64,000 nucleotides of DNA from a virus. The DNA lies in the IMG/VR virus record IMGVR_UViG_3300035210_000189, positions 1 through 64,000 of that record; one strand, 5' to 3'. The notes beneath the pieces were generated by a model. That model searched no databases, had not been told where the DNA came from, and saw nothing but the letters and a program-made list of their open reading frames with translations. This document shows, piece by piece, positions 13,393-54,744 of the stretch (position 1 is its first letter; the number at the start of each line of letters is the position of its first letter). The translations under genes were made by a program, and so were the position numbers.

Positions 13393-13469
13393 CTCTGCGT
13401 AGCTCAGTTGGATAGAGTGCTCGCTTCCGAAGCGAACGGTCGTTGGTTCGAATCCAACCGTAGAGGCCA
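13393..13469 (+). tRNA. tRNA-Arg(CCG)
   Basis: Acceptor CTCTGCG/CGTAGAG, D-arm GCTC-AGTTGGATA-GAGT, anticodon loop TTCCGAA, T-arm GTTGG-TTCGAAT-CCAAC, encoded CCA; 77 nt. Confidence 0.95.
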
Positions 13470-46915: not shown

Positions 46916-47395
46916 ATGGGTGTTACCTTCCAAGCTCAAATCAATCACGATGATTACCCACAACAGAAGGTGTTCATGGCTGATCTTTATCCTGATTTGG
47001 ATGAAGAGTATTTCAAGCTTGAAGGTTATTGCCCATTTGATGAAGAAACTCAACGCCATTACCAGATGGAGCGTGTCATTGACTTCAAACAAAGTCGTGA
47101 TTTCAGCTACGCTAATTTCTACTTGTTATTGGATCTGGTAGATCGTAATATCCGTATTGCCACACAAGCTGATGGTGGCTACTATGCTATCAATCATGCT
47201 GATATTCAAGTGTTCCGTAAGAAAGTCTTCATGGCCTTGAATAAGGTCAACGAAGGCCATGCTGTTGAGCCATCACAAAATGGAAACTTCTATGATTGTG
47301 GTGCATCTATGGATTATATTCATGGTGCTCTCAGTGATATGCTTGAAATCATTGATCAGGCATATAAGAAAAACTTAAATATTTTTTGGGCTTAA
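46916..47395 (+). CDS. Hypothetical protein
   Basis: GAGGT RBS; TGATATAAT promoter. Confidence 0.75.
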   Translation: MGVTFQAQINHDDYPQQKVFMADLYPDLDEEYFKLEGYCPFDEETQRHYQMERVIDFKQSRDFSYANFYLLLDLVDRNIRIATQADGGYYAINHADIQVFRKKVFMALNKVNEGHAVEPSQNGNFYDCGASMDYIHGALSDMLEIIDQAYKKNLNIFWA

Positions 47396-52220: not shown

Positions 52221-52613
52221 ATGGCTGGAATACCTAAACTATCAGTTAGATTATCGGACAGTTACAAAGCAGCACTATCAGAAATAACCACCACTATTGA
52301 AAATTTTAGAGCACTCGATGAATTGTATGATGCATACTCAGTTGAAATGACAATCAGAACAGCATGCATGGTTGATGATGAAGACATTTTTCCAGAAGAT
52401 TACGAGTTTGATTTAGATCCAGAATCACTTTATCTTAACATTTCTGACCTTCACAGTTTACAATCATGTAAGCCATCCGTTCTTAGTTTGTTGGAGTATG
52501 CGTTTAAAGATTCAGATTTAAAATTATGGCTTTATATTACCGATGATGACAAAACGTTTGTTTTTGTTCAAGCACCGTTGTCCCATCTCGCAGAGAATGC
52601 AAGGCACTATTGA
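52221..52613 (+). CDS. Hypothetical acidic protein
   Basis: AAGGAG RBS before ATG 52221. Confidence 0.7.
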   Translation: MAGIPKLSVRLSDSYKAALSEITTTIENFRALDELYDAYSVEMTIRTACMVDDEDIFPEDYEFDLDPESLYLNISDLHSLQSCKPSVLSLLEYAFKDSDLKLWLYITDDDKTFVFVQAPLSHLAENARHY

Positions 52614-53035
52614 TGACTGATATTGTTCCTTTGCTTCCACAGCTAACACATACACCGGAGATCGTTAAGGCCATTGATACCATCACTGGCTTGATTAAAA
52701 AAGTGAAAACAGCTCATGACCTTTTTTCAAAAAGAGACATGATAGAGCGAGCCACAGAGCTTGACTATCGTCTTCATTATGAAAAAAAGTTGCCTAATGA
52801 TATGTTGTTCATTCCAATACCTTATCAGGTGCTTAATCTATCCAGTGCTGAACTTGAAGTGATAAAACGCCACTTTGAGATTAGATCTGGCATCGTTTAT
52901 TCAATCAAGAATTTAAAAATCAAACACGAATATAATCATTGTATTGGTTTTAAACTTGATGTCTTATATCCTGCACCTGTTGAAGTTGCACCCGTAAAAG
53001 AAGATGTTAAGCCACCTGTTAAAAAAGCCAAATAA
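52610..53035 (+). CDS. Hypothetical protein
   Basis: Overlaps the previous stop. Confidence 0.65.
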   Translation: MMTDIVPLLPQLTHTPEIVKAIDTITGLIKKVKTAHDLFSKRDMIERATELDYRLHYEKKLPNDMLFIPIPYQVLNLSSAELEVIKRHFEIRSGIVYSIKNLKIKHEYNHCIGFKLDVLYPAPVEVAPVKEDVKPPVKKAK

Positions 53036-53339
53036 AAAACCCCGCTCTTTCGAGCAGGGCTTGGTAATAGGTAAGAGCGGCGATGAATTGCCGGATAAAG
53101 AACCCCTATTGATCCCGTGTTATAATTGCCCTTGGTGGCTACTATATCACTGGTTATTTTCACAACTCCCTCCCAGATCAACCACACCCAGTTAGAATGT
53201 CAGATTTTCTATTATCTACTGTTAACGAGGAAAAAATCTTCGAGACGAAAAAAACCTTTCAACAGTGAGTTTTTTTTTACAACAAAAAGTATACGGCATG
53301 AAACTACTCAATAAAAAAATCCGATATACCCTACCAAGA
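53034..53339 (-). ncRNA. Candidate ~305-nt structured ncRNA
   Basis: Own promoter, 5' CUUGGUAGGGUA pairs with 3' UACCUAUUACCAAG, internal hairpins, terminator CCCUGCUC-GAAA-GAGCGGG-U6; no credible ORF. Confidence 0.65.
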
Positions 53340-53342
53340 TCT

Positions 53343-53373
53343 AAATAGTATTACATTTAATACTATTTGTCAA
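53343..53373 (-). promoter_or_regulatory. Sigma70 promoter overlapped by an 11-bp palindromic operator
   Basis: TTGACA(53373-53368)-17 nt-TACTAT(53350-53345); AAATAGTATTA-CATT-TAATACTATTT at 53343-53368. Confidence 0.7.
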
Positions 53374-53374
53374 G

Positions 53375-54010
53375 TTAGCTATAACCTAATATAACATTTG
53401 TTGGTGCATACTTTGTTTTATTCAATGATGGTAAATGAGCAATAACCTCATCAGGTACCGAAACTTGAATCAAATAGCATGATTCGTTTTCAGTCATCAT
53501 AAAATTTTGAAGCAAATTTATGAACTCATCATTGTCAAATAAGTTGTTGGGAACAAAGACAGCCTTACTTTCCAGTTTTCTGAAAGCGGGTTTATTGATT
53601 TTTTCATTTTCAATCAACGTCAAATAGGTTTCATGGCTTCGTTTTTCATGAAGGCAGACACCCATGTTTTTACAAGCAGCCCAGTATGCATCTTGAATAA
53701 CGCTGATTTCTTCAATTTCGGCTGGCAGTTTAAAGACAAATGTTTTCTCACTCTCACCTTGGCCTAATGAAACAGTAAAGTGTTCGTCATATTCTTCGTT
53801 GATTAGTGCTTTTATAGAGCAATAGTTCATCGCTTTATCAATCACGTTGTTGGGCGTTTCACCTGTCAGTACATGATGTTTTGATTCACACCAGAACCGA
53901 ATCCAAAAATCATGTTTAGAACCTTTATTGACGGCTCTTTCGTCACATTCAATGGTCGGTTTTTTCGCCACTGTCCAAGCGAGACGTTCAGCATCGGTGT
54001 AGGTTTTCAT
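53375..54010 (-). CDS. Hypothetical protein
   Basis: AAGGT RBS; GGTATAAT promoter. Confidence 0.7.
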   Translation of the reverse strand: MKTYTDAERLAWTVAKKPTIECDERAVNKGSKHDFWIRFWCESKHHVLTGETPNNVIDKAMNYCSIKALINEEYDEHFTVSLGQGESEKTFVFKLPAEIEEISVIQDAYWAACKNMGVCLHEKRSHETYLTLIENEKINKPAFRKLESKAVFVPNNLFDNDEFINLLQNFMMTENESCYLIQVSVPDEVIAHLPSLNKTKYAPTNVILGYS

Positions 54011-54156
54011 TGTGTTTACCTTATTTTGGATATTGAGTGATTATACCTAAATATGGTCTAGATGGCAACCAATATTGTTTAAATTCAAATTAGCAATTTG
54101 CTTTTATTTTTTTTGTGATTATGTTATAATTAGACATTCTTTTAGAGAGCGTAATT

Positions 54157-54744
54157 ATGTTCGACATTAAGTATACGGAAATTCACGACAACCGCAAAAT
54201 GGCTAATCTCATCAAGCGTCATAAGCTTTTCGAGAAAGAACACCGCTCTAGCCGTTTTGAGAACAACGCTTTCTATATTTTGGAAGGGGATGAAGTTCGC
54301 CCTATGGGTGATGTTACCTTTATCAAAGTTAGTCATTTTTCTACAGTGGTTTGTCGTGTTGACAAGAAACCCGTGGGACTGCTTGTTCTGGAACACTACA
54401 TTGTTAATGATACCATTGATCCAAAGTTTACGTTGAACAACAAAAAACGTCGTTATACGATGATTGGTTTGGTCGGCACTTATGTTAAACCAGAGTTTCG
54501 TAAGAAAGGTATTGGACATGCTATGATGAGCGTGTTAAACGAGCAGCTTCAAGATCTTTATGTCAGTGATGATACGCATGTTCACATGTTAGCCGCTACT
54601 GGGAAAACGTTTGACCTTGTTCAAGCTGAAATGCCATCGTTCTGCCCTGTTGTGGCACCTTATAATTCTAACAAGTGGAAAGATACCGCAAAAAGCTGGT
54701 ATACTTACAGTCGTCATCATGAAGGTATGGTGGAATTCGTTTGA
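54157..54744 (+). CDS. GNAT family acetyltransferase
   Basis: YVKPEFRKKGIGHAMM acetyl-CoA motif A. Confidence 0.85.
   Translation: MFDIKYTEIHDNRKMANLIKRHKLFEKEHRSSRFENNAFYILEGDEVRPMGDVTFIKVSHFSTVVCRVDKKPVGLLVLEHYIVNDTIDPKFTLNNKKRRYTMIGLVGTYVKPEFRKKGIGHAMMSVLNEQLQDLYVSDDTHVHMLAATGKTFDLVQAEMPSFCPVVAPYNSNKWKDTAKSWYTYSRHHEGMVEFV

Follow-up and report, generated by a model that had tools for sequence, protein, structure and literature searches.

Structured RNAs of at least 300 nt that are supported by covariation are rare, and most of them are ribozymes, riboswitches or components of ribonucleoproteins, with self-assembling cages as a recent addition. 6S RNA (SsrS) is an extended rod of ~180-200 nt with a large central bubble, closed by pairing of its 5' and 3' ends. 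Phages also carry structured RNAs: phi29 pRNA has its own promoter and oligomerises through loop-loop complementarity, and the stable RNAs C and D of T4 are processed from the transcript of a tRNA cluster. Four ncRNAs are reported for jumbo phage PA5oct (PMC7318152), and the ROOL and GOLLD RNAs are described as forming RNA-only multimers (bioRxiv 10.1101/2024.12.08.627333).

The locus described here lies on the minus strand of a window of 64,000 nt (the whole stretch of DNA analysed), taken from the very beginning of an IMG/VR record of 152 kb that is listed as "provirus." A sequence-only reading had proposed a stable, structured, non-coding RNA that could not be assigned to a family, a proposal borne out by the way the sequence is conserved and covaries, with no ORF shared between lineages and no family in Rfam that it matches. 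From comparison of the copies, 53034-53339 is very probably a stand-alone, independently transcribed gene for a structured ncRNA of ~305 nt that belongs to a new family. Searched against Rfam, the RNA interval gave nothing at the gathering score and only scattered chance-level matches at E <= 10, and the weak matches of four homologous loci were equally inconsistent. The comparison with 6S, RNase P, SRP and tmRNA that the earlier reading had suggested was run and none matches; neither these four nor ROOL or GOLLD appeared in 52900-53500 (Rfam, E <= 10), and the search of the window for tmRNA, RNase P and SRP RNA (Rfam, ARAGORN) returned only the tRNA at 13393-13469. Like ROOL and GOLLD, this is a multi-helix structured ncRNA with its own transcription unit, on phage-like DNA that encodes tRNAs, and its sequence offers a possible self-complementary contact; it differs in matching neither Rfam model and in size, with 305-306 nt versus roughly 580-800 nt. 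An analogous candidate contact (CUUGGU/ACCAAG) recalls phi29 pRNA, but there is no Rfam match, size and fold differ, and the records yielded neither capsid nor terminase genes. T4 RNAs C and D and other orphan phage ncRNAs such as those of PA5oct are likewise small stable phage RNAs from genomes with tRNA genes and RNA-repair enzymes; no sequence relation was found, and the present RNA, unlike T4 RNAs C and D, has its own promoter and terminator. With YrlA, the bacterial Y RNA associated with Ro and an RtcB operon, it shares a structured nature, a location near RNA-ligase/repair genes and ends that had been proposed to pair, but there is no Rfam match, no tRNA-like module in the RNA (ARAGORN) and no TROVE/Ro match, the partner of a Y RNA, in four related records (152-193 kb, fragments). 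The same four records gave no RVT_1 match, which would be the partner in a retron or DRT system.

Thirteen further distinct copies of the RNA interval were recovered from metagenomic and IMG/VR contigs, giving a total of 14 that all represent one clade of closely related elements. They were gathered from the contigs of relatives of the neighbouring proteins and by exact-motif scans of IMG/VR and JGI metagenomes. Two candidates (L017 and L018), the only matches of a contig pattern scan, were discarded as chance matches in unrelated G+C-rich DNA. Over aligned columns, the RNA is 85-88% identical to the window and the flanking coding DNA 72-79%. The flanking 211-aa protein has ten relatives at 52-98% identity, only 52-81% in most homologues, and the GNAT-like protein beyond its gene has fourteen. 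Homology of the RNA begins exactly at UCUUGG in every context, even in two contigs (L003 and L030) with unrelated upstream DNA, at the very position that had been predicted as the transcription start. The 211-aa gene (53375-54010, minus strand) is missing in L003 and L030, and the 141-aa gene on the other side (52610-53035, plus strand) is missing in L004, L020, L030 and L031. Since the RNA unit stays in place as its neighbours on either side come and go, we regard it as an autonomous module. Four related records each contain one copy, and searches with nhmmer and the covariance model detected no paralogue in the 152-kb record. The neighbours are small genes, mostly without a family match, the exceptions being the GNAT-like protein, a metallophosphoesterase and an RNA ligase; those conserved next to the RNA are the GNAT-like protein and an acidic 130-aa protein, neither of which looks RNA-binding. 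With blastn, 52600-54100 gave no match among 50,697 phage records, a search of IMG/VR for loci related by the 211-aa or the 130-aa protein came back empty, and Ralstonia phage RsoM2USA, the closest cultured relative by its RNA ligase, has no copy of the RNA (best match E = 0.76). A GNAT homologue (P0024, 44% identity) has no adjoining 300-nt gap. The most distant 211-aa homologue (52% identity), on a 2.4-kb NCBI assembly contig (L012), lies in another setting, where PspC and bPH_2 genes are its neighbours and the RNA would not fit. As for the flanking genes themselves, the 211-aa gene has a promoter of its own (TTGCCA-17-TATAAT, 54068-54040) and the 141-aa protein has a lysine-rich tail.

The RNA body (53034-53339, minus strand, ~306 nt) is taken to start at UCUUGG and to run through the U-tract of the terminator. 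The minus-strand 211-aa ORF ends at 53375, and directly after it comes a sigma70-type promoter (53345-53373, minus strand), with the -35 hexamer TTGACA at 53373-53368, a 17-nt spacer and the -10 hexamer TACTAT at 53350-53345, the same elements that the sequence-only reading had picked out. It matches the consensus at 10 of 12 positions in a scan of the window. It should be noted that the scan alone is little proof in this AT-rich DNA, in which 15 promoter-like sites were found versus 12.6 expected. Across the copies, TTGACA is invariant (14/14), the variants of the -10 hexamer (TACTAT, TATGAT, TATTAT and TATAAT) all stay within TAnnAT, and the spacer keeps to 16-17 nt with a sequence that is free to vary. 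L003 and L030 have a TTGACA-17-TATGAT/TACTAT promoter at the same distance despite their different upstream DNA. At the other end, an intrinsic terminator (53030-53063 including the U-tract, minus strand) was found where one with a GAAA loop had been claimed; its G+C-rich stem (53062-53037, minus strand) has 11 pairs, 6 of them GC, carries the GAAA loop and is followed by the U-tract, which overlaps the stop codon of the convergent 141-aa ORF. The stem is not followed by a U-tract on the plus strand, which indicates that the terminator serves the minus strand. In L030 the terminator has a different sequence with three compensated pairs. Every copy long enough to cover these parts retains both promoter hexamers, the RNA body and a terminator. 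A perfect 11-bp inverted repeat (AAATAGTATTA-N4-TAATACTATTT, 53343-53368) spans the promoter spacer and the -10 hexamer; a conserved operator at this palindrome was considered and found unsupported, the palindrome belonging to the window lineage only and being missing in the others. Four RNA-type libraries were examined among the runs that contain parts of 52400-54200. For three of them, from three studies (wastewater, soil and freshwater), every contig on this stretch is 181-215 nt long and falls wholly inside the unit (53107-53321, 53119-53323 and 53152-53330; 95-99+% identity). The lack of contigs over the flanks in libraries X15, X17 and X18 was given no weight. This is a weak hint of transcription, as contigs reveal neither the ends of a transcript nor its strand or abundance, and possibly one of the three libraries is DNA.

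The window interval (306 nt) folds at -86.1 kcal/mol (z = -2.72), and none of 100 shuffles was as good. A consensus of eight sequences (MAFFT and RNAalifold) is multi-branched (5 branch points), its 11 helices comprising 84 pairs; in this alignment, which was not fitted to a model, both partners differ in 7 pairs, and the observed values were attained by 0 of 500 shuffles. The covariance model R1 was built from the eight sequences and matches positions 1-310 in 12 of 12 full-length copies with 235-381 bits. With all 14 sequences aligned to R1, 96.8% of the cells at the 84 pairs are paired, and 13 pairs (35 cells) are changed on both sides, again reached by 0 of 500 shuffles, figures to be read with the fact that fitting to R1 favours structure and that the covariation partly rests on L030 and the L004 group. 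As a control, sliding the 3' partner by 1-3 columns left ~50% paired and at most 5 pairs with two-sided change. The search for homologues and covariation proposed on reading the sequence thus returned 13 copies beyond the window and 13 compensatory pairs. Compensatory support falls on H2, H4, H5, H6, H7, H9 and the terminator. At least 6 helices stay paired through substitutions, of which many are compensatory. G:U pairs make up 217 of 1141 paired cells (19%), from which it follows that the fold belongs to the minus-strand transcript and not to the DNA or the other strand.

Following the transcript from its 5' end, the first seven nucleotides (UCUUGGU, 53333-53339, minus strand, like all the elements of the fold) are invariant in 14/14 copies. 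The 5' hairpin H2/H3 (53287-53331, GGGUAUAUCGG ... CCGUAUACUU) encloses a U7-containing internal loop and a small apical hairpin; all of its cells are paired, with compensatory GC->AU changes in 4 sequences and AU->GC in 5. Then comes a linker, unpaired in the consensus and A-rich in all copies, which had been counted as A8 and is actually A9 (53270-53278). In the domain H4/H5 (53218-53266), ACUGU/ACAGU (H4; 100% paired, one compensatory pair UA->GC) forms the base of a purine/U-run hairpin made by pairing of GAAAGGUUUUU and GAAGAUUUUUU (H5; 93.5% paired, 2 compensatory pairs, both from L030). A longer version of H5, ACUGUUGA/UUAACAGU, was among the pairings seen by the sequence-only reading and holds well, with 95.8% of cells paired and 2 compensatory pairs. 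An ENE-like triple helix, with A9 clamped by two U-runs, was rejected, the U-runs pairing with purine runs in H5 in a way that is compensated in L030. A second linker, AAUAnAAAAUCU (53203-53217), is unpaired in the consensus and nearly invariant in the alignment. It leads to hairpin H6 (53163-53202), in which UGACAUUCUAACUGG pairs with the purine run CUGGGAGGGAGUUG around an 11-nt loop; its 12 pairs have 100% of cells paired, 7 of them varying on one side only and yet staying paired and one being compensatory. Hairpin H7 (53117-53150) has 3 compensatory pairs, each in 5-6 sequences, and a conserved apical loop (53131-53136), which reads ACCAAG in 10 and GCCAAG in three of the 13 copies covering it. 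A 13-nt stretch at 47173-47185 (minus strand) is identical to AUAGUAGCCACCA, i.e., the H7 5' arm and the first loop bases, at chance level (E = 0.55); AUAGUAGCCACCA also resembles a tRNA 3' end (GCCACCA). The 3' domain H8-H10 (53069-53116) consists of UAGGGG/CUCUUA and the hairpin GGC-AAUUCAUC-GCC with its near-invariant loop; H9 is 100% paired with one compensatory pair (GC->UA) and H10 is invariant.

The remaining pairings of the first proposal fared less well, and that reading had the boundaries largely right and part of the fold wrong. Its pairing GUUGAUCU/GGAUCAAU is 83% paired and has 2 compensatory pairs between two lineages, but the L004 group and L022 do not keep it; possibly it is a pseudoknot, variable among lineages, that links the H6 loop to the stretch following H7 (53103-53109). 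The stem CUUGGUAGGGUA/UACCUAUUACCAAG, thought to close the molecule, is not confirmed in that form: its outer half is 66% paired and formed only in the window lineage (window and L003), and its inner half, 80% paired, competes with H2 (GGGUAUAUCGG/CCGUAUACUU), in which 100% of cells are paired and 2 pairs are compensatory. For UGCCG/CGGCA, the match is 4 bp long and invariant, and it clashes with the supported helices H2 and H10. A weaker 5'-3' contact (GG with CC) is thermodynamically likely in 8/8 sequences folded (ViennaRNA), G5 and G6 pairing with the pre-terminator ACC with a probability of 0.5-0.98. The 5' end is also complementary to two other ACC-containing sites, AACCA (53151-53155) and the H7 loop. 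The match of CUUGGU with the loop ACCAAG is kept in 100% of cells, with one U:A->U:G change and zero compensatory changes, and covariation cannot decide among the three partners.

As to function, the host RNA polymerase would make the RNA early, and the RNA would then act in trans as a folded molecule. Our tentative preference is for a protein-binding RNA, a scaffold, cofactor or decoy that would make its contacts by invariant loops and linkers and not by long antisense pairing. In favour of this reading are the number of helices conserved, the invariance of loops and linkers, and the fact that no complementary target was found in the record; a protein sponge, one of the roles suggested from the sequence alone, is a possible candidate. 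Complementarity to the rest of the 152-kb record was not significant (blastn-short), and none of 340 start regions stood out with RNAduplex, the strongest lying at ~3 sd, as expected among 340. Next in rank is a base-pairing sRNA of the Hfq type, in which UCUUGGU or the linker AAUAnAAAAUCU would act as the seed on host or element mRNAs and the rest would stabilise the molecule. An intrinsic terminator with a U-tail, the conserved A9 tract and the U-runs are what such an sRNA would have, and both the 5' end and the linker are invariant and single-stranded. On the other hand, 305 nt and at least 6 conserved helices are far more structure than these sRNAs need, the 5' end already has three internal pairing partners, and nothing in the record is complementary above chance. 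All in all, we consider it rather unlikely, and behind protein binding.

A more adventurous reading, to which we give a small chance, is that of a new class of folded-particle RNA, either self-assembling through CUUGGU/ACCAAG like ROOL and GOLLD or serving as a decoy within the RNA-repair and tRNA-mimic counter-defence arsenal of a giant, uncharacterised AT-rich element that is found on contigs of up to 1.9 Mb. The narrower version, in which the 5' CUUGGU of one molecule pairs with the ACCAAG loop of another to give dimers or larger RNA-only assemblies, appears improbable. The two motifs are perfectly complementary and conserved, the single U:A->U:G change keeps the pair, and ROOL and GOLLD offer a precedent for multimers; but both sides are invariant, with no covariation between them, the same pairing could form within one molecule, and this RNA is much smaller than ROOL or GOLLD and similar to neither in sequence or model. 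The carrier is a poorly understood element rich in RNA ligases that may use RNAs in host takeover or counter-defence. If this were simply another orphan phage ncRNA, the gain would be a new family for the RNA databases. The clean boundaries, a sigma70 promoter that is expected to work in laboratory hosts and the 14 natural variants make the RNA directly testable.

Three further explanations have very little left in their favour. A 6S-like decoy of RNA polymerase, which the sequence-only reading had put forward, would fit a stand-alone, stable-RNA-like unit without an ORF, read by the housekeeping polymerase and with some 5'-3' pairing predicted thermodynamically, but the RNA is much longer (~305 nt versus ~180), its consensus is multi-branched and not a rod with a central bubble, the closing stem is unconserved and no Rfam 6S match exists at E <= 10; we hold it to be highly improbable. 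The same applies to a leader or attenuator that would act in cis, with the alternative pairing CCGCUCUU/AAGAGCGG as the switch for its terminator, a reading already largely refuted: the 8-bp alternative helix is present in the window, but it has an A.C mismatch in most copies and two mismatches in L030, where the terminator was changed without compensation in that helix, the competing helix H9 covaries, and no minus-strand gene follows in any copy, the next gene always being convergent, so that the same-strand downstream gene expected of a riboswitch or attenuator is lacking. Hardly more credible are the ideas that the unit encodes a small protein or that it works as DNA, be it an origin, a packaging site or a partition site, for which one could cite the ORFs of 29-83 aa that overlap the unit in the window and the AT-rich region with its homopolymer runs; among RNA-strand ORFs of at least 15 aa none is common to the lineages, frame, start and length differing in each, none has an ATG start in any lineage, scattered single-base indels in the RNA alignment shift the frames, and the combination of conserved frame, start codon and ribosome-binding site that marks a small-protein gene is absent, in agreement with the earlier remark that the overlapping ORFs of 62-83 aa lack RBSs, while ~19% of G:U pairs would be meaningless on duplex DNA or on the other strand and the promoter and terminator are conserved.

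The nature of the carrier also deserves a comment. Four "provirus" records of 152-193 kb gave no match to terminase, HK97-type capsid or tail sheath, and the same locus is found on contigs of 1.86 and 1.92 Mb. G+C is uniform along the record (31-38%). Among the proteins of the record are a T4 RnlA-like ligase, with its best match in the jumbo Ralstonia phage RsoM2USA (44% identity), and two that have a domain of jumbo-phage virion proteins. The carrier could be either a very large element or a cell that harbours a large island. Other features of the record include a TnpB-like transposase of 378 aa (100352-101488) that matches PHROG transposase families (phrog_506, E = 6e-66), lies 47 kb from the RNA and is unrelated to it. 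At 140254-146557 there is a tandem run of eight ORFs of ~236-272 aa, several of which overlap by ~20 nt; one such ORF (L033 3443-4261) is of the SIR2 family (E = 4e-37) and two others that were tested had no Pfam match. The tRNA genes of the record include Arg-CCG (13393-13469) and, beyond the window, Leu-TAG (72430-72513) and Cys-GCA (85602-85675).
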